NCBI GenBank assembly: GCA_045656985.1
Contig: JAZOSH010000076.1
Coordinates: 1-55,292, forward strand
Source: Eubacteriales bacterium
Lineage (GTDB): Bacteria > Bacillota > Clostridia > Oscillospirales > CAG-272
Direction of reading: 5' to 3'
DNA length: 55,292 nt
Below, piece after piece: positions 48,252 to 55,292 of the stretch. Position 1 is the stretch's first letter. Every line of letters begins with the position of its first letter. Position numbers and translations under genes: made by a program. Under the pieces are notes generated by a model, which was given only the letters and a program-made list of their open reading frames with translations, did not search any database and was not told the origin of the DNA.

Positions 48252-48407
48252 CTTTTTCCTCCAAGGCTTCGTTTATATATATTTTGAAATAAAAGGGAGC
48301 AAAATATTCAATAAGCTCTCTCTCCATCCAATTTATTTTTGGGGCGACTGCATAAGACAATTTTTTTGCGGTGTGAGGTTTATAATTATCGTGATGGGAG
48401 GGATAAA

Positions 48408-49265
48408 ATGGAGCAAACTGTATACATAGACCTTCTGTTTCTGATAAATTTCAGTATGGACTTTCTCTGCTTTTTTCTTGCTTCGCGAATACTTTCGTGG
48501 CGTATAAGTCTACCTCGTACACTCATGGCGGCTGTCGTTGGCGGGATTTATTCGTCGGCGGCGCTGTTTTTGCCAAAGCTTTACTTTTTGTCGTTTGTTA
48601 TTGATGTCGCGGTGAGCTTTTTTATGGTGCTCATCGTTACACTTGGACGAAGATTTGCCGATATAATACTCTCTTGGGTAGTTTTTTTTGCCGTTTCCAT
48701 GGCCCTTGGCGGCTTCATGACAGCAATATTCAATCTGCTCAATAAGGCAGGGCTTGGCGGAGCTGACCCGTCGGGCGAGGAGGGAATATCGGTCTGGCTT
48801 TTTCTTCTTATCGCTCTTGTAAGTGGGGCAATAACGCTTTTCTCGGGGCGCTTTTTCAGAAAAAAGGCGGCAACGCGCACCGCAAGGGTGACTGTAAGCT
48901 ACTGCGGCAGAAGTATTGTGCTTGAGGGGCTCGTTGACAGCGGAAATTTTCTGCGTGAGCCGATAAGTGCACGACTCTGCGTGGTTGCAGACAGAGGCGT
49001 GCTCTCGGGCTTTCTTCCAAGCGAGCTACTCTCTGCATCAGGCAATGCGGTGCATATTGATATACTCTCGCCCGAGCATGCAAAAAGCGTTCGTCTTGTT
49101 CCAACAAGGAGCGCAACGGGGGAGGGAGTTCTTCTTGCGATAAGGCCCGATAAAATGTACATTGATGTTGGTAAGGGTGAGGTTTCTGTTGACGCTATGC
49201 TTGCGATAAGCACGCTTGGCGGCGGTGAGAGAAGCGCTCTTGTGCCTGCAGAGCTTATAGAATAG
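48408..49265 (+). CDS. spoIIGA: Sigma-E processing peptidase
   Basis: VYIDLLFLINF, TM segments, GLVDSGNFLREP; directly upstream of sigE. Confidence 0.9.
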   Translation: MEQTVYIDLLFLINFSMDFLCFFLASRILSWRISLPRTLMAAVVGGIYSSAALFLPKLYFLSFVIDVAVSFFMVLIVTLGRRFADIILSWVVFFAVSMALGGFMTAIFNLLNKAGLGGADPSGEEGISVWLFLLIALVSGAITLFSGRFFRKKAATRTARVTVSYCGRSIVLEGLVDSGNFLREPISARLCVVADRGVLSGFLPSELLSASGNAVHIDILSPEHAKSVRLVPTRSATGEGVLLAIRPDKMYIDVGKGEVSVDAMLAISTLGGGERSALVPAELIE

Positions 49266-49274
49266 GGGGATTTT

Positions 49275-49976
49275 ATGATAGGATTTTTGAGAGGTATTTG
49301 GTGCCGTGTGCTTTTGTTCTTTCGACGGCGCGGCATATATTATATAAACGGCCCCGAGGTGCTTCCTGCGCCTCTTTCAAAGGAGGAGGAGCGCAAGGTG
49401 ATAGCCCTTCTGGATGTTGACGAGGGGGCAAGACAGCGACTCATAGAGCATAATTTGCGACTTGTGGTATATATTGCCAAGCGCTTTGAAAACACGGGAA
49501 CGGGACTTGAGGACCTTATATCTATAGGAACGATAGGCCTTATTAAGGCGATAAACACCTTCCGTGCCGACAAAAACATCAAGCTTGCTACATATGCCTC
49601 GCGATGCATAGAAAATGAGATACTTATGTATATCCGCAAATACTCGGGCGCACGCAACGAGATATCTATTGATGAGCCGCTGAATACCGATCTTGACGGC
49701 AACGAGCTACTTCTTTCCGATGTGCTCGGCAGTGATGAGGAGAGCATTTCCTTTGAAATAGAGCAGCTTGAGGAGAGGGTTGTCATTCGCCGTGCGGTAG
49801 CCGCCCTTGAGACAAGGGAGAGGGAGATAATTGAGCTTCGTTACGGGATGCGCGGGGATAGGGAGCTGACACAAAAGGAGGTTGCTGACAGGCTTGGCAT
49901 CTCGCAGTCATATATCTCGCGCCTTGAGAAGAAGATCATAGCGCGACTTCGTGACGAGATAGCGGCTAAACTATAA
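49275..49976 (+). CDS. sigE: Sporulation sigma factor E
   Basis: [48 protein letters not shown]. Confidence 0.93.
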
Positions 49977-50090: not shown

Positions 50091-50300
50091 ATGAAGACAG
50101 ACATTCAGCCTAAATACGAAGAGTGCGTAATCAAGTGCGCATGCGGCGAAACAGTAACAACAAAGTCCACAAAGGGCGGCGAGATCAGAGTAGAAATCTG
50201 CTCCAAGTGCCATCCCTTCTTTACAGGTAAGCAGAAGTTCGTTGATGCGGGCGGACGCGTTGACAAGTTCAAGAAGAGACTTGCAAGCTCTGGCAAATAA
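50091..50300 (+). CDS. rpmE: 50S ribosomal protein L31 (Zn-binding type)
   Basis: CACG...[26 protein letters not shown]. Confidence 0.95.
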
Positions 50301-50325
50301 TAGGCCGAGAGGACTTTCAGAAAAA

Positions 50326-50358
50326 GAGGCTGTTGCGTTACGCAACAGCCTCATTTTT
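50326..50358 (+). terminator. Intrinsic terminator after rpmE
   Basis: GAGGCTGTTGCG-TTA-CGCAACAGCCTC followed by T-rich tail. Confidence 0.75.
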
Positions 50359-50376
50359 CTTTTTGGAGGTGAATAT

Positions 50377-51666
50377 ATGAAGGAACAAAATATAGAGATG
50401 TCGCGTGCTGCCCTTGTTGGCATCGTGACAAGAGACGAGAGCGCCGAGGAGGTAGAAAGCTCACTTGACGAGCTTGCGCGCCTTGCCGATACGGCGGGTG
50501 CAGAGAGCGTGGTGAGACTTGTGCAAAACAAGGAGACACCCGATCCCCGAACCATGATAGGAAGCGGAAAGGTGGCAGAGCTTGCCATGCTTTGCGAGAC
50601 CAATGGCGTTGATATCGTTATTTTTGACTGTGATCTCTCGCCTTCACAGATAAGAAATCTTGAGGACGCGATGACGGGCGAGGTTAGAGTGATTGACCGC
50701 TCAATGCTCATTCTGGATATCTTCGCACTTCACGCCGTTACAGGTGAGGGAAAGCTTCAGGTAGAGCTTGCACAGCTCAAATATACCGCACCGAGACTTT
50801 ACGGAAAGGGAACAGAGCTCTCAAGGCTTGGCGGCGGTATCGGTACACGAGGCCCCGGAGAGTCAAAGCTTGAGACCGATAAGAGACATATAAACAGACG
50901 GATCCACGCTCTTGAGGAGCAGATAGCGGAGCTTGAAAAGAATCGCAGGACCATGCGTGCCGCAAGAGACAGAAGCGGACTTCAGAAGATCGCGATAGTG
51001 GGATACACTAATGCAGGAAAGTCAACACTTCTCAACCGTCTTACTGATGCGGGAATTCTTGCAGAGGACAAGCTTTTTGCAACGCTTGATCCAACCACGC
51101 GTAAGTTTGAGCTTCCCTCGGGCGAGAGTGTGCTTCTCACCGATACGGTAGGATTTATCAAGAAGCTTCCTCACCATCTTGTAAAGGCATTCCGTTCAAC
51201 ACTTGAGGAGGCGTGCTATGCCGACATTCTTATGATAGTTATAGATGCCTCTGACCCTGAAAGTCCCGCGCAGACCGAGGTGACACTTGATCTGCTTGAG
51301 GAGCTTGGCGCGGGTGGAAAGGAAATGCTTTTTGTGTACAACAAGTGCGACAAGGGAATTTACGAGTTTGGCAGAGTAGGACAGCCTGCGAGAGAAAATG
51401 TGGTTTATATGTCCGCACTCACAGGTCAGGGAACAGAGCTTCTTGTGGCAAAGCTTGAGGAGCTTTTGCTTGCTGCGAAGCGTTCTGTGGTATTCACCAT
51501 TCCCAATAGTGAGGCGGGCGCACTCAATACCCTTTACAAGAACGCGACTGTTCAGGATGTTGAATACGGTGCCGAGGCAATAAAGGTGACTGCCCTTGCC
51601 GACGCAAAAACGATAGGAATGCTCCGTAAATATACCGATATTCCCGAGGAGAAAGAGGAGTATTGA
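50377..51666 (+). CDS. hflX: Ribosome-splitting GTPase HflX
   Basis: GIGTRGPGE, GYTNAGKS, LFATLDPT, DTVGF, NKCD. Confidence 0.95.
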   Translation: MKEQNIEMSRAALVGIVTRDESAEEVESSLDELARLADTAGAESVVRLVQNKETPDPRTMIGSGKVAELAMLCETNGVDIVIFDCDLSPSQIRNLEDAMTGEVRVIDRSMLILDIFALHAVTGEGKLQVELAQLKYTAPRLYGKGTELSRLGGGIGTRGPGESKLETDKRHINRRIHALEEQIAELEKNRRTMRAARDRSGLQKIAIVGYTNAGKSTLLNRLTDAGILAEDKLFATLDPTTRKFELPSGESVLLTDTVGFIKKLPHHLVKAFRSTLEEACYADILMIVIDASDPESPAQTEVTLDLLEELGAGGKEMLFVYNKCDKGIYEFGRVGQPARENVVYMSALTGQGTELLVAKLEELLLAAKRSVVFTIPNSEAGALNTLYKNATVQDVEYGAEAIKVTALADAKTIGMLRKYTDIPEEKEEY

Positions 51667-51700
51667 AAAAGAGCAGATAGTAACTACTATCTGCTCTTTT
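51666..51700. terminator. Bidirectional terminator at the left edge of the AT-rich island
   Basis: AAAAGAGCAGATAGTA-AC-TACTATCTGCTCTTTT. Confidence 0.8.
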
Positions 51701-51705
51701 ATGCT

Positions 51706-52986
51706 TTATATTTTTGTCGTTTCCAACAAAGCTTCCCGATACATATTTTTATTGGTCAAATATATATCATAGTCATCAGATATTTCCCACAAAAAATCGA
51801 AATATTCTGATAGTGCTATGAAAAAGTTATTGGCTTGAGATGGAGTTGAAACTTTCTGATGCTCGACTCTCATTTCAAAAGCGTTCATTCCGCGTTCTGA
51901 GCCAACACAATGTAGATAAGGTTCAATATAAGCTACATTGTCAACTATAAGTATTGTAGAATTCATTTCATATGGACACATTTTTAGATGAATTTTACCT
52001 GGATATTCCTCTTCTAGTTCTTCATAGCCCTCGAGTGCTGCTTCTAATTTTCGTTTTACCCAAGGGGAACTGTCAATTTTTTGAACCAACTCGGAAAGCG
52101 GTATTTCCTTTAAGCACTCTGTAAGATTTTTGCTTTTTATTTTGGTAAGAGACACATCTCCCGCAGTGATGTAACTGCCCATTTTGCTATATGGATTTGC
52201 AAGTAATATATTTACGATACCATCACGGCGTAGACAAGCTTCTACTTCTTCAAAGAATCTTGAAGACATTGGATTTAGGTAGGAATTTCCGCTATGAGCC
52301 ATTAAACGAATACTTTTTGCGTTTTCAAGGTCAGCTTTTTTGCTTGAGTTGCGTTCATCATTGTCACTACGGAGAAACAAATTAGTTATTCCACTGTTGG
52401 AATAGTGTTGAGAAAGAATAGTGCGTCGTTCTGATTTGACAATATAATCAAAAATGAAACATTGTATTTTTTCTTCAAAATCACTGTCATTTTCAAACTC
52501 ATAGTAAATTCCTGGGTGAGCCCCATCTGCGCAAAAATCATCAAGAAATTTGGTTACTTTTTTGTATTGAACATAGTCATTGTTGTCTTCGTTAATTTGT
52601 TCAATTACTTTTTTATGCATGAACTTTATTGATGGTTTTCCTGTTTTTTTCCAAGAGTCATAAGCTAGTTTGAATTCCGTTTCTGTACCTGATTCGCAAG
52701 GAAGTCCTGTTAATTTATCTTGTTCACCAGTAGGAGTGCCAAAACGCTTCCACAAGATTCCTATATACAGATCATATCCGGCGGGAGATGGTGTAAGTGA
52801 TTGAGGAAGCCCCATCTCTACGGTTGATGAAGAATGTTCCCAAAGAAATGGGTCCAAGTGAATGCCATAAGATTGACCTAACATTTTGTTTAGATTGTTT
52901 ATGCTTTTTTCACATATTAGGCGTTGTTGTTTAACATCATTTGGAGAGGAAATAAATATTTTAATTATTTTTTTTGTTTTGCCCAT
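51706..52986 (-). CDS. DUF4062 (TIR/nucleoside deoxyribosyltransferase-like) domain fused to a PLD-like (DUF5919-like) domain
   Basis: KIFISSPNDV...YDLYIGILWKRFGTP...SGTETEF; C-terminal IRLMAHSG, VNILLANP, ILIVDN, YFDFLW. Confidence 0.7.
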   Translation of the reverse strand: MGKTKKIIKIFISSPNDVKQQRLICEKSINNLNKMLGQSYGIHLDPFLWEHSSSTVEMGLPQSLTPSPAGYDLYIGILWKRFGTPTGEQDKLTGLPCESGTETEFKLAYDSWKKTGKPSIKFMHKKVIEQINEDNNDYVQYKKVTKFLDDFCADGAHPGIYYEFENDSDFEEKIQCFIFDYIVKSERRTILSQHYSNSGITNLFLRSDNDERNSSKKADLENAKSIRLMAHSGNSYLNPMSSRFFEEVEACLRRDGIVNILLANPYSKMGSYITAGDVSLTKIKSKNLTECLKEIPLSELVQKIDSSPWVKRKLEAALEGYEELEEEYPGKIHLKMCPYEMNSTILIVDNVAYIEPYLHCVGSERGMNAFEMRVEHQKVSTPSQANNFFIALSEYFDFLWEISDDYDIYLTNKNMYREALLETTKI

Positions 52987-52994
52987 CTTTGTTT

Positions 52995-53849
52995 TTATCC
53001 TTTGTCATCATTTTTTATTTCTCGCTCTATTTTATTAATTAGTATCTTTTCAGCGAATTTTGGGTTACTCCAATTTTTCCATTTTTCATATATATCAATG
53101 TCAAAAATATTTCCAAGGATTTTATATTCTCCTATTTTTTTGTTTAATGTTGTGTACACAAGACCCGTGCTTGAAACAAAAAAATATCCGTTTGCTCGGT
53201 TCTCATAGGGGACATATTCAAAGTCTAGCCTATTATCAATGTAGTGTTCAATTTCTTTTCCTCTAGTGACAAATTCCTTTTTTGTGCAGCAAAAATCCGA
53301 GTCATTTTTTATAAGGTTAAATGGCCAAAACTGATATAAGCTCCAGGTTTTTATGTTGTGTAACAAAAGAGTATCTGCAATTTGTTCTAAATAATTTGAA
53401 TTTCTTTTTGAAAACAATGTATGAACCACTAATTTTGGGAAGTGATTAGCCGCAAAAGTAAAGTTTTCCATAAAAGTTTCAAGTTTTTTTTGTGAATACC
53501 TCTGAAAAACAGGCATATCTGGCACATCATCTAACGAGGTTGATAATTGATCTATCTTAGAAGCGCAACTCAAAAATGCTGATCTGTTTAACCAAATTAA
53601 AGAAGAATCTACTCCCCAATAACATGTTTTGTTTGTGTCGGTTAGCAAGGAATAAAAGTCTTCATAGAAAAAAGGATCACATCCGGAAAAAGAAATCATG
53701 TTAGGACTAAATTCATTGGCACGAGCTAATATGTCTTTCCATAAAGAAAGGGTGCCGCTTCCTTTTTTATCAAAAGGAATGAAGCAAAAGGAACAATTAT
53801 TTAAGCACACATCGTTGAAATTAAATATGATTCGAGGTATTTTTTTCAT
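52995..53849 (-). CDS. Radical SAM enzyme, viperin-like
   Basis: CLNNCSFC (CxxxCxxC), ISFSGCDPF, STSLD, WSLYQF, GYFFVSSTG; no SPASM cysteines. Confidence 0.8.
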   Translation of the reverse strand: MKKIPRIIFNFNDVCLNNCSFCFIPFDKKGSGTLSLWKDILARANEFSPNMISFSGCDPFFYEDFYSLLTDTNKTCYWGVDSSLIWLNRSAFLSCASKIDQLSTSLDDVPDMPVFQRYSQKKLETFMENFTFAANHFPKLVVHTLFSKRNSNYLEQIADTLLLHNIKTWSLYQFWPFNLIKNDSDFCCTKKEFVTRGKEIEHYIDNRLDFEYVPYENRANGYFFVSSTGLVYTTLNKKIGEYKILGNIFDIDIYEKWKNWSNPKFAEKILINKIEREIKNDDKG

Positions 53850-54472
53850 AGAGCATCTCTTTTTAAAATATTAATTATTTGATAAAAATTTTCAACTTCA
53901 AAGTCAGCGTAAACATTTGTTTTTTTATTTATTAAAAACGACATGTTGGCAAGTGAAAAAATTCCTTCATCAGCTATTGAATCGCCAATTGCGATAATAT
54001 TTTCTTTTGCTATATTATGTTCTTTTATATACAAATTTGCACTCAAATATTTATCTACACAACGACAAACATTGTTGTTCCACTTTTGAATAATTCCATT
54101 GTTTATAGAAATGGTGCTTCCATAAAATTTACGAAAGCCTAATTTTTTTGAAAAAAAATCAAGTACAAACGAGGCATTACCAGAAAGCACAAGAACCTCA
54201 ATTTTATTAGCTGATGCAAAAGAAAAAAAATCATGCACCCCTTCTGTTAACGGAATTGAACCTAAGGTAGTAAATATATCTGTTACCTTTATACCTTCAA
54301 GCATGGAAAATCGGTGTATAAGGGCATCCCTTCCATTAATTTTTCCTGATTGGTATCTACTATTTATGGCTGCACTTTCTTTTCCTTGTCCTACCAGATC
54401 GCATAAAGCATCTAGGACATCAGTTGATGTTATAGTACCATCGAAATCGCATAAAATAAGTTTAGTTTTCAT
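53846..54472 (-). CDS. HAD-IB family phosphatase (SerB/MtnX-like)
   Basis: CDFDGT motif I, LSG motif II, GDSIAD motif IV; ATGA overlap with the radical SAM gene. Confidence 0.88.
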   Translation of the reverse strand: MKTKLILCDFDGTITSTDVLDALCDLVGQGKESAAINSRYQSGKINGRDALIHRFSMLEGIKVTDIFTTLGSIPLTEGVHDFFSFASANKIEVLVLSGNASFVLDFFSKKLGFRKFYGSTISINNGIIQKWNNNVCRCVDKYLSANLYIKEHNIAKENIIAIGDSIADEGIFSLANMSFLINKKTNVYADFEVENFYQIINILKRDAL

Positions 54473-54899
54473 AGGCAATATATTCGTTATAAAAATGTTT
54501 AAGATAGTCCATGCAGTTTACATTTGGTAAGTCGCAAGGATTTATCCACATATATTGGCAATGTTCTCTCGGGTTAATGGTTATAGGAGAGTGTTCGTCT
54601 TTAATAGTACAGCTTACCACGAGCTGTATGTCTTTGCGATCAGGAAGCTGTTCGCGATTAACATATACGCTCAAGGGAGAAGTTATTTTCTCAATTTCCA
54701 ACCCGGTTTCTTCCTTTACTTCCCGTATTATAGTTTCGTTTATATCTTCATGTAATAACATTTTGCCACCAGGAATATCCCAAAACAAAGGTTTATATTT
54801 ATTTGATGACGCGCGTTGAAGGATTAGTGTTTCACCATTTCCGTTAAGAAAAAAAGCGTGTACTGCAAAGTAATTTGTAATATAAGGTTCTTTTTTCAT
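54462..54899 (-). CDS. NUDIX hydrolase
   Basis: Complete Nudix box GGKMLLHEDINETIIREVKEETGL; overlaps the HAD gene start. Confidence 0.9.
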   Translation of the reverse strand: MKKEPYITNYFAVHAFFLNGNGETLILQRASSNKYKPLFWDIPGGKMLLHEDINETIIREVKEETGLEIEKITSPLSVYVNREQLPDRKDIQLVVSCTIKDEHSPITINPREHCQYMWINPCDLPNVNCMDYLKHFYNEYIAYEN

Positions 54900-54940
54900 T
54901 ACATTTAAGCCTTTCAAAGAAAAATATACTCTACAACTAT

Positions 54941-54969
54941 AGTATATCATTCTAAAAAAAAAAAGTCAA
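54941..54969 (-). promoter_or_regulatory. SigA promoter of the NUDIX-HAD-rSAM-DUF4062 operon with a T11 tract
   Basis: TTGACT-17 bp-TATACT with extended TG; 11 A at 54954-54964 on the plus strand. Confidence 0.7.
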
Positions 54970-55070
54970 CTTATAAACTAATTTGTTAGAAGGAATTTTT
55001 GAAATAGGATAGATCTATTGACATAATGCTATCTAGTATGGTAAAATTTTAAAAAATAGGAGGTGAGCTT

Positions 55071-55292
55071 GTGGCACAAATGAGCTATACGACCGTCAGG
55101 CGCGAGGCGTCAGACGAGTTTGAGGAAAAGCGCTCGGTCTTTATCGGACACGCAAGGCATATAGATTGCGAGAACGATGCGCTTGAGTTTATAAAGGCCA
55201 AGAAAAAAGAATACTACGATGCGCGCCACAATGTCTATGCCTATGTGCTTGAGGGCGGAAATATCATGCGCTATTCCGATGACGGAGAGCCG
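55071..55292 (+). CDS. yigZ: YigZ/IMPACT family protein (partial, runs off the window)
   Basis: Translated by hand: EEKRSVFIG...ARHNVYAY...RYSDDGEP; AGGAGG RBS. Confidence 0.9.
   Translation, partial: MAQMSYTTVRREASDEFEEKRSVFIGHARHIDCENDALEFIKAKKKEYYDARHNVYAYVLEGGNIMRYSDDGEP

Follow-up and report, generated by a model that had tools for sequence, protein, structure and literature searches.

A rare, foreign four-gene block joining a NIR/PLD-fold fusion protein to NUDIX, HAD and viperin-fold radical SAM enzymes: a candidate anti-phage module

In CBASS (SAVED), type III CRISPR (CARF) and Thoeris, a single sensor domain is fused to any of a range of effectors that can replace one another, TIR, SIR2, PNP and caspase-like domains among them. 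According to the accessible text of three 2026 preprints, DUF4062, which can no longer be called uncharacterised, is a TIR-like NADase domain ("NIR") acting in phage defence. All DUF4062 proteins tested there are NADases, the enzymes release ADP-ribose, the reported catalytic residues are Glu87, Glu97, Glu98, Glu103 and Glu108, and Swarozyc, Evangelion and Vulcan are single-protein DUF4062 defence systems. Vesta, in the available part of its preprint (bioRxiv 10.64898/2026.09.04.749371), combines a NIR protein that has an uncharacterised C-terminal domain with a phosphatase. In Metis, as far as the available text describes it (bioRxiv 10.1101/2025.11.05.686725), a HAD phosphatase breaks down the basal nucleotide signal. 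Ophion (bioRxiv 10.1101/2025.09.30.679545, likewise available in part) is a defence operon around OpnA, a radical SAM enzyme related to viperin but distinct from it. The pVip proteins are covered by PADLOC models PDLC02903/02904 and NCBIfam NF038283. Here we analyse a locus that resembles each of these in some respects. It lies in a 55,292-nt stretch of an Eubacteriales genome (the window; contig JAZOSH010000076.1) and is most likely a rare conflict module of four genes, gained by horizontal transfer and with an anti-phage role.

A foreign four-gene block between hflX and yigZ

The block spans 3.3 kb and contains four tightly coupled minus-strand ORFs, encoding a NUDIX hydrolase, a HAD-IB phosphatase, a radical SAM enzyme and a DUF4062 fusion protein (Table 1). 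An ORF check returned these co-oriented genes with the positions and content given in the original prediction, which had also described an operon with its own promoter and terminator. Reading the sequence directly, we found the 11-nt overlap between the NUDIX and HAD genes (with ATG 54472), the ATGA overlap between the HAD and radical SAM genes and the gap of 8 nt before the fusion gene, all as described. The promoter and terminator are upheld at the level of a consensus match and of a hairpin placed where the hflX and fusion genes converge. Because of the position of the promoter-like site, ATG 54902 is favoured as the NUDIX start.

Table 1. Features of the block and its flanks (positions in the window)
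Feature	Position	Strand	Remarks
Promoter-like site TTGACT-17-TATACT, extended -10 TG	54969-54941	-	10/12 consensus matches; consensus match only
NUDIX hydrolase, 146 aa	54462..54902	-	Likelier start ATG 54902 behind GAAAGG; ORF open to ATG 54950
HAD-IB family phosphatase, 208 aa	53846..54472	-	ORF to 54478; ATG 54472 used
Viperin-fold radical SAM enzyme, 284 aa	52995..53849	-	CX3CX2C at C15/C19/C22
Fusion protein gene, DUF4062 and PLD-fold halves	51706-52986	-	Last of the four genes
DUF4062/NIR domain, N-terminal, residues 1-189	52420..52986	-	Invariant Glu104 in SGTxxEF
PLD-fold domain, C-terminal, residues 190-426 and stop codon	51706..52419	-	Without HKD motif
Perfect 16-bp hairpin, likely bidirectional terminator (function inferred)	51667..51700	.	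100% complementary
hflX, host flank, ~50% GC	50242..51666	+	GTP-bdg_N/M, MMR_HSR1, HflX_C
yigZ (UPF0029), host flank, cut by window end	55071..55292	+	UPF0029/YigZ-type protein

The AT-rich block had been taken for foreign DNA at a site that might be empty in relatives, and the comparison with other genomes bears this out. GC content is 0.27-0.38 within the block and about 0.42-0.53 in the flanks. Homologues of hflX are present in 18/18 genomes of the genus; in four of them (G001-G004) hflX and yigZ directly adjoin, leaving an empty site, and in another three (G013, G014 and G018) other cargo, which is not defence-like, lies between the two genes. The island DNA had no match in any of the 30 other genomes in a set of 31 relatives. 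A radical SAM profile run against 401 genomes of the family found the source genome (G000) only, besides one weak match in an unrelated 454-aa ORF, and a sensor-domain profile run against 401 genomes of the phylum again found the source genome only. The block is a foreign, horizontally acquired, mobile module.

Could these be ordinary nucleotide housekeeping or salvage genes, AT-rich by chance? Housekeeping is the usual role of NUDIX and HAD families and also of the genes on either side, and the lack of a surrounding defence island counts against a defence role. However, the block is missing from all other relatives searched, its families are tiny worldwide, GC drops sharply at its borders, and the DUF4062 domain, like the fusion partners of the sensor domain, points to conflict systems, making a housekeeping origin very improbable.

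With about 15-24 protein clusters the module is rare, and outside the source genome it is visible only in part. Beyond the query, we found 23 clusters for the radical SAM enzyme, 14 for the fusion protein and 12 for the HAD protein, families of similarly small size. Metagenome locus L015 contains NUDIX, HAD and radical SAM genes in the same order, joined by an ATGA overlap and a 1-nt gap, with 43% (NUDIX) and 41% (HAD) identity to the window proteins. Its host neighbour is a different one, dCMP deaminase, at 57-60% GC, and GC drops again at the module genes. The fusion protein has 14 close homologues, and for 8 of them the longest contig is equal in size to that of a radical SAM homologue; two HAD homologues match likewise. 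For five radical SAM homologues on long contigs (26.7, 17.0, 51.0, 8.3 and 31.0 kb) there is no fusion partner on a size-matched contig, and the converse holds for four fusion homologues (4.5, 4.7, 68.9 and 6.1 kb). Co-occurrence elsewhere is thus suggested by three genes in the partial locus L015 and by matching contig sizes; all four genes were observed directly together only here. The claim of novelty stands in one respect: PADLOC 2.0, Pfam, NCBIfam and the papers searched yielded no named system with the NUDIX-HAD-radical SAM-DUF4062 set. Taken singly, however, three of the four proteins are matched by PADLOC models (pVip, PDC-S07 and PDC-S60).

The two halves of the fusion protein

The N-terminal half scored 17.3 bits against Pfam DUF4062, below the cut-off of 24.7; 14 of the 15 members of the fusion family match DUF4062 at E<=0.01, and PADLOC PDC-S60 covers residues 5-186 (2.7e-26). 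Its fold matches TIR domains (Z about 10), RCL (9.5), MilB (9.5) and 2'-deoxyribosyltransferase (8.4), confirming the TIR/nucleoside deoxyribosyltransferase-like fold first assigned to it. The putative catalytic Glu104 is invariant in 15/15 family members and close to the catalytic positions that the available preprint text reports for DUF4062 proteins. We treat this half as a predicted NADase, an effector that, judged by its family matches, fold and Glu104, looks intact.

The C-terminal half had been called PLD-like, and as to its fold this is correct: structure matches are NucT (Z 12.8), TrmBL2 (12.5), FAM83B (12.4), Nuc (11.5) and the sugar-binding domain of TrmB (11.1). The HKD motif is absent from the domain, however, and a canonical PLD phosphodiesterase is therefore unlikely. 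No Pfam, NCBIfam or PADLOC model covers this half, and the domain searched alone against Pfam gave no match. Its conserved residues are R212, K216, E355-P356-Y357 and E371. A profile search detected the unnamed domain in 245 representative proteins. Among 107 PLD-fold proteins scanned, the partners were DUF4062 (29), TCAD9 (8), APH-type kinase (7), NUDIX (6) and PNP_UDP_1 (2), plus SIR2_2, TIR_2, caspase, NDT, EAD11 and HD in one protein each; none was fused to a radical SAM or HAD domain. By BLAST, 47/144 representatives carry a NIR domain.

The PLD-fold domain is, then, mobile, occurring in fusions with many different conflict effectors and with the NUDIX family of the operon, a distribution that gives real support to the earlier idea of a sensor-effector protein. 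We propose that it acts as a sensor and binds a nucleotide-derived ligand; its conserved residues could equally form a new catalytic site instead of a binding pocket. The sensor family, with 245 representatives, far exceeds the 24 clusters of the radical SAM family, and most sensor-domain proteins therefore work without this radical SAM enzyme, which weakens the case for this enzyme as the maker of the ligand.

The same folds would suit a small set of biosynthetic genes whose product is a nucleoside analogue, an antibiotic or a signal that leaves the cell. The TIR/NDT-like domain would then release or exchange a base, like MilB or BlsM in the pathways of peptidyl-nucleoside antibiotics, and the radical SAM, NUDIX and HAD enzymes would together give a modified nucleoside. 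The likeness of the N-terminal domain to MilB, RCL and 2'-deoxyribosyltransferase agrees with this, as does the match of the radical SAM profile to BlsE (1.4e-5; Z 16.6 in the fold comparison), and stepwise removal of phosphate suits release of a nucleoside. We nevertheless consider such a cluster quite unlikely: TIR domains score at least as high as MilB, the DUF4062 proteins tested in the accessible preprint text were NADases without exception, no transporter, glycosyltransferase, ligase or self-resistance gene is found within the block, and the SIR2, TIR, PNP, caspase and TCAD9 kinase partners of the PLD-fold domain belong to conflict and not to biosynthesis.

The NUDIX, HAD and radical SAM enzymes

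The NUDIX protein matches PF00293 (E 7.6e-16) and PADLOC PDC-S07 (4.3e-13), and direct reading shows an intact NUDIX box, GX5EX7REVXEEXGL, at G45-L67 of the 146-aa form. Its relatives are found at the C-terminal side of the PLD-fold domain in 7/144 representatives (BLAST), with 33-41% identity to the operon NUDIX. Six of these fusions have E values of 1e-22 to 1e-27, and the seventh, P0153, aligns over 48 residues only (E 3.9e-5). One is a NIR-sensor-NUDIX triple fusion, and together they sit in two separate clades of the PLD-fold domain tree.

A NUDIX fused right after the effector-sensor unit would also fit the hand-over of a substrate, with NUDIX and HAD as part of the killing line rather than signal handlers, so that phage NAD+ reconstitution is left with nothing to rebuild from, and the radical SAM enzyme adding a further, unspecified step. 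ADP-ribose is indeed the product of DUF4062 enzymes in the available preprint text, and the phage NARP1 pathway needs ADP-ribose and nicotinamide, according to the accessible part of the Metis preprint (bioRxiv 10.1101/2025.11.05.686725). However, in NCBIfam the NUDIX protein matches enzymes of nucleoside-triphosphate type best (PRK08999, NudB, NudG, MutT) and the NadM-type ADP-ribose enzymes rank lower, all far below their cut-offs. In addition, four NUDIX fusions (P0100, P0113, P0125 and P0118) have no NIR domain detectable by BLAST, and the radical SAM enzyme is left without a role. On balance we find this explanation unlikely.

The HAD protein scored 65 bits against TIGR01488 (cut-off 45) and keeps both catalytic motifs, DxDxT (DFDGT) and GDxxxD (GDSIAD). 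Close homologues number only 12, with 50-53% identity, and the next match falls to 26%.

The radical SAM enzyme scored 31 bits against the Radical_SAM family (cut-off 29.5). With its AF2 model (pLDDT 93.8), Foldseek placed viperins at the top (best E 8.2e-12, best TM 0.79), and in VIA viperins took ranks 1-10 (Z 25.1-21.6), the Z of 25 extending over 267-270 residues with the C-terminal part included. Viperins were also best in the profile search against the PDB (E 4.5e-11), and 22/23 family members match the PADLOC pVip models. The viperin-like character first proposed is therefore upheld along the whole length, but the production of ddhNTP is not. With the NCBIfam viperin model the enzyme reaches 26.2 bits, where the cut-off is 180, and M/L, V and T occupy the positions aligned with viperin's phosphate-binding Lys, Lys and Arg; in the family, position 51 is M/L in 23/23, and a basic residue occurs at 141 in 1/23 and at 168 in 0/23. 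The C-terminal RxxxY clamp of viperin is not conserved in the family either. Because of the low score and the phosphate-binding positions, we rejected a canonical viperin identity, and a product of ddhNTP type is unsupported.

The viperin fold invites another explanation, namely two adjacent defence arms. In one, the radical SAM enzyme would behave as a prokaryotic viperin and produce a nucleotide analogue that terminates chains, while NUDIX and HAD would recycle this analogue or shield the host from it; in the other, the NIR-PLD-fold protein would be an independent abortive infection system sensing, for example, a phage protein or DNA. The whole-length fold and the pVip matches agree with this, single-protein DUF4062 systems exist (in the accessible preprint text), and most PLD-fold proteins lack this radical SAM partner. 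The viperin phosphate-binding positions and RxxxY are not kept, however, and the adjoining hydrolases would destroy a triphosphate product, whereas known pVips are paired with kinases (to judge from the PADLOC model name). The genes are tightly coupled, with the 8-nt gap and a single promoter-like/terminator-like pair, 8/14 fusion homologues size-match radical SAM contigs, and NUDIX is tied by fusion to the PLD-fold domain, not to the radical SAM enzyme. We regard two independent arms as doubtful.

Proposed mode of action and comparison with known systems

The explanation that we prefer, with about even confidence, is a conflict system in which the three enzymes set the level of a nucleotide-derived ligand, and the PLD-fold domain, on sensing it, switches on NAD+ depletion. 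The effector would be the fusion protein, with the NIR domain as NADase and the PLD-fold domain, which has lost HKD and has invariant residues of its own, as the small-molecule sensor that gates it. The NUDIX, HAD and radical SAM enzymes would share one nucleotide-derived compound, the ligand of the sensor: the radical SAM enzyme may alter a ribose-bearing substrate, NUDIX may cut a pyrophosphate bond and HAD-IB may take off the terminal phosphate. Together they could either make the ligand or hold its resting level low, as MisB does in Metis, the NADase firing only on infection; NAD+ depletion and abortive infection would be the outcome. In this reading the gene structure, the foreign origin, the folds, the residue conservation, the spread of the sensor as a module and the NUDIX fusions are direct results, and the role of DUF4062 domains as anti-phage NADases is that given in the preprints; the NADase activity of this copy, the binding and identity of a ligand, the order of the enzymes and a phage phenotype are inferred. 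If correct, the module would be a variant of bacterial immunity against viruses that has not been described before.

Compared with pVip, the locus shares CX3CX2C and the whole-length viperin fold, viperins being the best matches in both sequence and fold, but it falls far short of the family score, does not keep the phosphate-binding residues at the aligned positions or a conserved clamp, and has hydrolases and a predicted NADase as partners instead of nucleotide kinases. Ophion, in the available text, likewise joins its radical SAM enzyme to a phosphoesterase and an enzyme acting on N-glycosidic bonds; these are OpnB (PHP) and OpnC (PRTase), where the present locus has NUDIX, HAD and NIR-PLD-fold proteins, and the radical SAM enzymes are compared by description only.

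Metis, by the accessible part of its preprint, follows the logic proposed here: a modified mononucleotide triggers an NAD+-destroying effector, and the basal signal is held down by a HAD phosphatase, the HAD proteins again being compared by description only. Its effector MisA, however, is a PUA and calcineurin-like NAD+ diphosphatase, not NIR plus PLD-fold, and its signal comes from degraded host DNA, without a radical SAM or NUDIX enzyme. In Vesta, as described in the available text, the small protein VstA has an N-terminal NIR NADase with catalytic Glu103, against the invariant Glu104 here, and a C-terminal domain for which ligand binding is proposed; this half is uncharacterised in both proteins and compared for VstA by description only. 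The NIR gene again shares an operon with a phosphate-removing enzyme, VstB, which is dispensable for Vesta defence; VstB is an alkaline phosphatase, and NUDIX, HAD-IB and a viperin-fold radical SAM enzyme are found here instead.

Non-catalytic PLD folds, those of TrmB/TrmBL2 and of FAM83 (DUF1669), are among the best matches of the C-terminal domain, showing that the fold can serve binding; there is no detectable sequence similarity to them, and the context here is one of conflict and not of a transcription factor. With the signal-sensor-effector systems, finally, the PLD-fold domain shares the pattern of fusion to many effectors. The sensor here is PLD-like instead of SAVED, CARF or SLOG, and in place of a cyclase or TIR signal-maker, the candidate signal-maker would be the radical SAM enzyme.

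A variable chromosomal site and the block that occupies it

The genes for the NUDIX, HAD-IB phosphatase, radical SAM and DUF4062 fusion proteins are closely packed between hflX and yigZ. Direct reading of the DNA bears out the gene junctions of the original prediction: the HAD ATG at 54472 overlaps the end of the NUDIX gene by 11 nt, an ATGA joins the HAD stop to the radical SAM start, and the last gene begins 8 nt beyond the radical SAM stop. The block is AT-rich as had been described, with a GC content of 0.27-0.38 against about 0.42-0.53 outside it, and by Pfam the proteins on either side of it are confirmed to be HflX and a member of UPF0029/YigZ. As for the promoter and terminator attributed to the block, a promoter-like site and a hairpin are indeed present, both as consensus matches only. 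Because of the position of the promoter-like site, the NUDIX gene more likely starts at the ATG at 54902, which lies behind GAAAGG, than at the ATG at 54950.

Genes and putative signals of the four-gene block, by position in the window
Feature	Position	Strand	Basis
Four consecutive ORFs (NUDIX, HAD phosphatase, radical SAM, 426-aa protein)	51706-54950	-	ORF reading
Promoter-like TTGACT-17-TATACT with extended -10	54969-54941	-	consensus match only
Perfect 16-bp hairpin in the interval where hflX and the last gene converge	51667-51700		consensus match only

The 5-kb stretch carrying the block was searched by BLAST in 31 genomes (the window's own, 18 of the same genus and 12 of the same order). 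We found hflX in all 18 genus relatives, and the island part of the query matched no genome but the window's own. The hflX-yigZ junction, which the original prediction had put forward as a possible empty site, is empty in four relatives (G001, G002, G003 and G004), where the two genes lie about 100-220 bases apart on the same contig and where, in G004, yigZ begins directly after the hflX stop. Other relatives carry different cargo. In G013 (locus L009, G013:C5) the site is occupied by a 719-aa protein, in which ricin-type lectin, CBM96 and peptidase-C39-like domains were identified, beside a small lipoprotein-like ORF. In G014 (L010, G014:C49) and G018 (L011, G018:C37) it holds an ORF of 150-154 aa, translationally coupled to hflX, and a lipoprotein-like ORF of 410-418 aa, neither with a Pfam match; a "ParB-like" label for the smaller protein was dropped on that account. 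In G011 (L012) the gap measures 0.76 kb. The junction is thus a variable site in the genus, and its other cargo is not defence-like.

Wider searches gave a similarly narrow distribution. A radical SAM profile run against 401 genomes of the family found the window's own genome, plus one weak match in an unrelated 454-aa ORF, and a profile of the fusion protein's C-terminal domain, the putative sensor, run against 401 genomes of the phylum found the window's own genome alone. Within 51400-55292 we saw no integrase or mobility genes, and no flanking repeats beyond short, chance-like ones. Judged from sequence, the block is foreign. Pattern scans of genome contigs with the radical SAM profile and the fusion-protein alignment detected no relative within the limits of pattern and sensitivity. 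The metagenome scan returned one locus (L015), which is cut. Scans of viral contigs with the radical SAM profile and the sensor-domain alignment gave no match, a result bounded by the same limits and not to be read as absence. Within their sensitivity, tblastn searches also gave nothing: plasmids and phages did not match the radical SAM protein, and plasmids matched neither the sensor domain nor a sensor-NUDIX fusion (P0118).

Two further features of the contig were recorded. ORFs resembling those for SpoIIGA, the protease that processes sporulation sigma-E, and for a sigma-E/K-type sigma factor lie at 48339-49976, directly upstream of rpmE/hflX (translations judged by eye); from these spoIIGA and sigE genes the host would be a spore-forming, gut-type Firmicute, a description and not a taxonomic call. 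The final 141 bases (55152-55292) recur at 100% identity, on the opposite strand, in the terminal region of a second contig of that assembly (G000:C86:26673-26813), and the two contigs probably join there.

The three enzymes of the block

The NUDIX protein matches PF00293 at 7.6e-16 (58.8 bits, cut-off 21.1), and its translation contains an intact NUDIX box, GX5EX7REUXEEXGU. In NCBIfam it comes closest to nucleoside-triphosphate-type enzymes, every score being well under the cut-off. The second protein passes the 45-bit cut-off of TIGR01488 (HAD-IB) with 65 bits and contains, by direct reading, the motifs DFDGT (DxDxT nucleophile) and GDSIAD (GDxxxD); in its family, identity falls from 50% to 26% after 12 matches.

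The radical SAM protein was compared with viperins by motif, profile and predicted structure. Two cysteines of its CX3CX2C cluster motif, C19 and C22, are present in 23/23 family members and the third, C15, in 22/23. An AlphaFold model built from 23 relatives reached a pLDDT of 93.8, and a Foldseek search with it placed viperins first (E 8.2e-12, best TM 0.79). In VIA, ranks 1 to 10 were all occupied by viperins or viperin-like enzymes (Z 25.1-21.6), the best alignments covering 267-270 of 284 residues with the C-terminal extension included; SuiB followed as the next family (Z 21.2). The family profile, searched against solved structures, also found viperin-like enzymes best (4.5e-11), and 22 of the 23 members matched PADLOC pVip models. 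With the NCBIfam viperin model NF038283, 13 of the 23 members scored at E<=0.001 (best E 1.9e-20).

Viperin residues were mapped onto the family indirectly: a printed alignment with the T. virens enzyme was combined with distances from the cluster cysteines, anchored on what we take to be the numbering of Cys83 in human viperin. According to a 2026 preprint, the residues of human viperin that coordinate phosphate are Lys119, Lys219, Arg244, Arg346 and Tyr350 (bioRxiv 10.64898/2026.09.10.750538). By this indirect mapping, the position aligned to Lys119 (51) is M or L in all 23 members, that aligned to Lys219 (141) is basic in one of 23, and that aligned to Arg244 (168) is basic in none, the adjacent 167 being basic in 16. 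A conserved C-terminal RxxxY clamp was not found in the last 60 residues of the 23 members; an incidental RGxVY occurs at about residue 230 in three. These results lean towards a loss of the core viperin phosphate-binding residues, and suggest that the substrate may not be held as an NTP in the manner of viperin. Since the phosphate-binding positions appear changed, we do not claim a ddhNTP product. The description of the enzyme as viperin-like holds for its fold, its CX3CX2C motif and its pVip matches and does not extend to a canonical viperin: judged by a score of 26.2 bits on NF038283, against a cut-off of 180, and by phosphate-binding positions that appear changed, it is not one despite a viperin fold over its whole length.

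Two relatives deviate from the rest of the radical SAM family. In P0023 a Lys replaces the first cluster cysteine. P0024, the most divergent member (32% identity), still has a Lys where the second phosphate-binding Lys of viperin aligns and reads G-G-D, not G-C-D, and because of these two features it appears nearer to the canonical viperins.

The two halves of the fusion protein

The product of the last gene was modelled with a pLDDT of 83.1. Its N-terminal 189 residues are, by profile and predicted fold, a DUF4062 domain. The window protein itself scores 17.3 bits with PF13271 (DUF4062), under the cut-off of 24.7, and 14 of 15 members of its family match at E<=0.01 (best E 7e-9); the DUF4062-bearing PADLOC model PDC-S60 covers residues 5-186 at 2.7e-26. 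The fold of residues 5-187 resembles the TIR domains of RPS4 (Z 10.3), MAL (10.1) and TIR-STING (10.1), values that are middling by the tool's own note, and also RCL and MilB. DUF4062, renamed NIR, is described in three 2026 preprints as a TIR-like NADase of phage defence that acts in Swarozyc, Evangelion, Avs2, Vulcan and Vesta; the catalytic Glu of the enzymes tested is given there as Glu87, 97, 98, 103 or 108. Glu104 of the window protein, in an SGTxxEF motif, is invariant in 15/15 family members and is a putative catalytic Glu, as judged from its position and from the end of the Pfam profile, not from alignment to the tested enzymes.

The 237 residues of the C-terminal half have a phospholipase D fold. 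Structure comparison of residues 197-408 returned NucT (Z 12.8), TrmBL2 (12.5), FAM83B (12.4), Nuc (11.5), the TrmB sugar-binding domain (11.1) and Zucchini (10.9), and the best Foldseek matches among catalytic PLD enzymes were vaccinia F13 (E 3.7e-6) and NucT (1.4e-5). The HxKxxxxD (HKD) motif of those enzymes is absent from the domain; the site reads AHSGxS, with no Lys or Asp. The PLD-type His231 is kept in 15/15 close relatives but in only 57/126 other representatives. Among these same 126 representatives outside the close family, a different set of residues is conserved: Arg212 (124), Lys216 (121), Gly233 (118), Pro265 (116), Glu355 (123), Pro356 (124), Tyr357 (123) and Glu371 (121). For this domain there is no model in NCBIfam, PADLOC or Pfam, the last giving nothing credible even at E<=10, and the ESM Atlas offered sub-0.9 leads only, to unnamed clusters and to one cluster with DUF5919 on 15% of its members.

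A profile made from six copies of the domain was searched against 1.84 billion representative proteins and found 245 at E<=0.001; the count falls to 166 at 1e-10 and to 69 at 1e-30. Pfam scans of 107 proteins among the best 150 of these 245 identified as partners DUF4062 (29), TCAD9 (8), APH-type kinase (7), TPR_12 (7), NUDIX (6) and PNP_UDP_1 (2), and, once each, SIR2_2, TIR_2, caspase, nucleoside deoxyribosyltransferase, EAD11, HD, LRR and a winged-helix regulator; none of the 107 had a radical SAM or HAD domain fused to the PLD-fold domain. By BLAST, a NIR domain is present in 47/144 representatives. TrmB and FAM83 are cases of PLD folds in binding roles, to which the window's domain can be likened. 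From this binding-type fold, the lost HKD motif, the pocket-like residues of its own and the many effector partners, we infer that the domain is a sensor; a new catalytic activity in place of sensing is the alternative. With 245 representatives and no name, the domain is widespread, and over many effector types it behaves as an exchangeable, sensor-like module.

The partner of this presumed sensor that also occurs in the block is NUDIX. It follows the domain at the C-terminus in 7/144 representatives, 33-41% identical to the operon NUDIX; six of these match at E 1e-22 to 1e-27 and the seventh, P0153, over 48 residues only (E 3.9e-5). One, P0103, is a NIR-sensor-NUDIX triple fusion. In a midpoint-rooted FastTree phylogeny of the domain the NUDIX fusions fall into two separate clades, so the NUDIX-sensor association would be older and wider than the radical SAM association, and the clade to which the window protein belongs branches terminally within a large NIR-sensor radiation. 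A complex prediction of the sensor domain with the NUDIX protein scored 0.00, which is no verdict, neither for nor against binding. The NUDIX fusions of other lineages would offer a direct handle on the proposed ligand.

The tree contains two other groups of distinct architecture. In one (P0142, P0148, P0154, P0167, P0171, P0172, P0177, P0182 and P0205) the proteins are about 1000-1100 aa long, with a central PLD-fold domain and about 430 residues beyond it; in the three scanned singly (P0142, P0148 and P0171) a TCAD9/APH-type kinase-like region precedes the domain. In the other, of about 570 aa, the N-terminal part of about 340 residues is without family assignment.

Gene association, a possible mechanism and relation to known systems

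The metagenome locus L015 (2.1 kb, cut) carries NUDIX, HAD and the beginning of a radical SAM gene, arranged as in the window, with 43% (NUDIX) and 41% (HAD) identity to the window's proteins and junctions formed by an ATGA overlap and a 1-nt gap; its radical SAM fragment is the first 111 residues of the homologue P0020. The GC content of this module is 39-49%, against 57-60% in an adjoining dCMP/cytidine deaminase gene (126-647; PF00383, 5.9e-27), which lies 66 nt upstream of NUDIX on the same strand. That GC content suggests that the deaminase belongs to the host flank, a role in the module being the alternative.

Linkage of the fourth gene was approached through contig sizes. For 8 of the 14 close homologues of the fusion protein, the longest contig equals in size that of a radical SAM homologue (2854, 3850, 5315, 3439, 3651, 45520 for P0020, 19764 and 11413), and two HAD homologues match likewise (3850 and 5347). 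Two fusion homologues lie on contigs too short for linkage to be judged. Against strict linkage, four others, including the two most divergent, have no radical SAM counterpart, and for five radical SAM homologues, whose contigs measure 8-51 kb, there is no fusion protein to match. The families are tiny, with 24 (radical SAM), 15 (fusion) and 13 (HAD) clusters at E<=0.001, query included. The co-occurrence expected from the original prediction is seen in part, directly for three genes at L015 and indirectly in the eight size matches, with no such match for the four fusion and five radical SAM homologues left unpaired.

In the reading that we favour, the fusion protein would act as a ligand-gated NADase whose ligand derives from a nucleotide, and NUDIX, HAD and the radical SAM enzyme would govern how much of that ligand is present. 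The last of these enzymes may synthesize the ligand, mark a host compound or serve as a separate antiviral arm. We speculate that dephosphorylation could come first and the radical SAM enzyme act on a nucleoside or monophosphate, a route that fits the gene order and the apparent loss of phosphate-binding residues. It is conceivable, if rather improbable, that the three enzymes make a radical-derived second messenger, a nucleotide or nucleoside, which the PLD-fold sensor reads, switching on the NIR NADase. In a bolder version with the opposite sign, the product would be an "all is well" ligand that keeps the NADase inactive, and the system would be set off when a phage takeover deprives the cell of SAM or nucleotides.

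Should the sensor be supplied by the radical SAM enzyme, viperin-type chemistry would reach beyond chain terminators to signals. Were the messenger reading true, this would be the first immune signalling pathway with a radical SAM-made messenger and, with either sign, the PLD-fold domain would be a new nucleotide-sensor family for NIR, SIR2, TIR, PNP, caspase and kinase effectors. It was not until 2026 that DUF4062/NIR NADases were identified as immune effectors, and their switching-on is known for a few protein-sensing cases and not for the ligand-type ones that resemble Vesta; the locus is a compact four-gene case, with likely ligand-handling enzymes beside the effector. Even on the least novel reading it would be a new arrangement joining a viperin-like enzyme with NAD+-depleting immunity in what we take to be a gut-type lineage of Firmicutes, one with few tested defence systems.

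In the literature searched we found no description of a viperin-like radical SAM enzyme combined with Nudix and an anti-phage NADase, which agrees with the original prediction that the combination is not a named system; Figure S1 of the Swarozyc preprint, which reportedly shows DUF4062 operons with "diverse enzymes", may already depict it. The ligand-level logic of our proposal follows from the precedents of Metis and Vesta. The HAD phosphatase of Metis reportedly removes basal m6dAMP, so that an NAD+-cleaving effector fires only on infection (bioRxiv 10.1101/2025.11.05.686725). Vesta pairs a small NIR protein, whose C-terminal domain is uncharacterised, with a phosphatase that defence does not require (bioRxiv 10.64898/2026.09.04.749371); unlike Vesta, the block has no alkaline phosphatase, and HAD and NUDIX stand in its place. 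In the defence system Ophion, a phosphoesterase and a PRTase work alongside a radical SAM enzyme related to viperins (bioRxiv 10.1101/2025.09.30.679545). The NIR effector, the viperin-like enzyme and the phosphatases in signal control are thus of known kinds, and it is their combination, together with the family of PLD-fold sensors, that appears to be undescribed.
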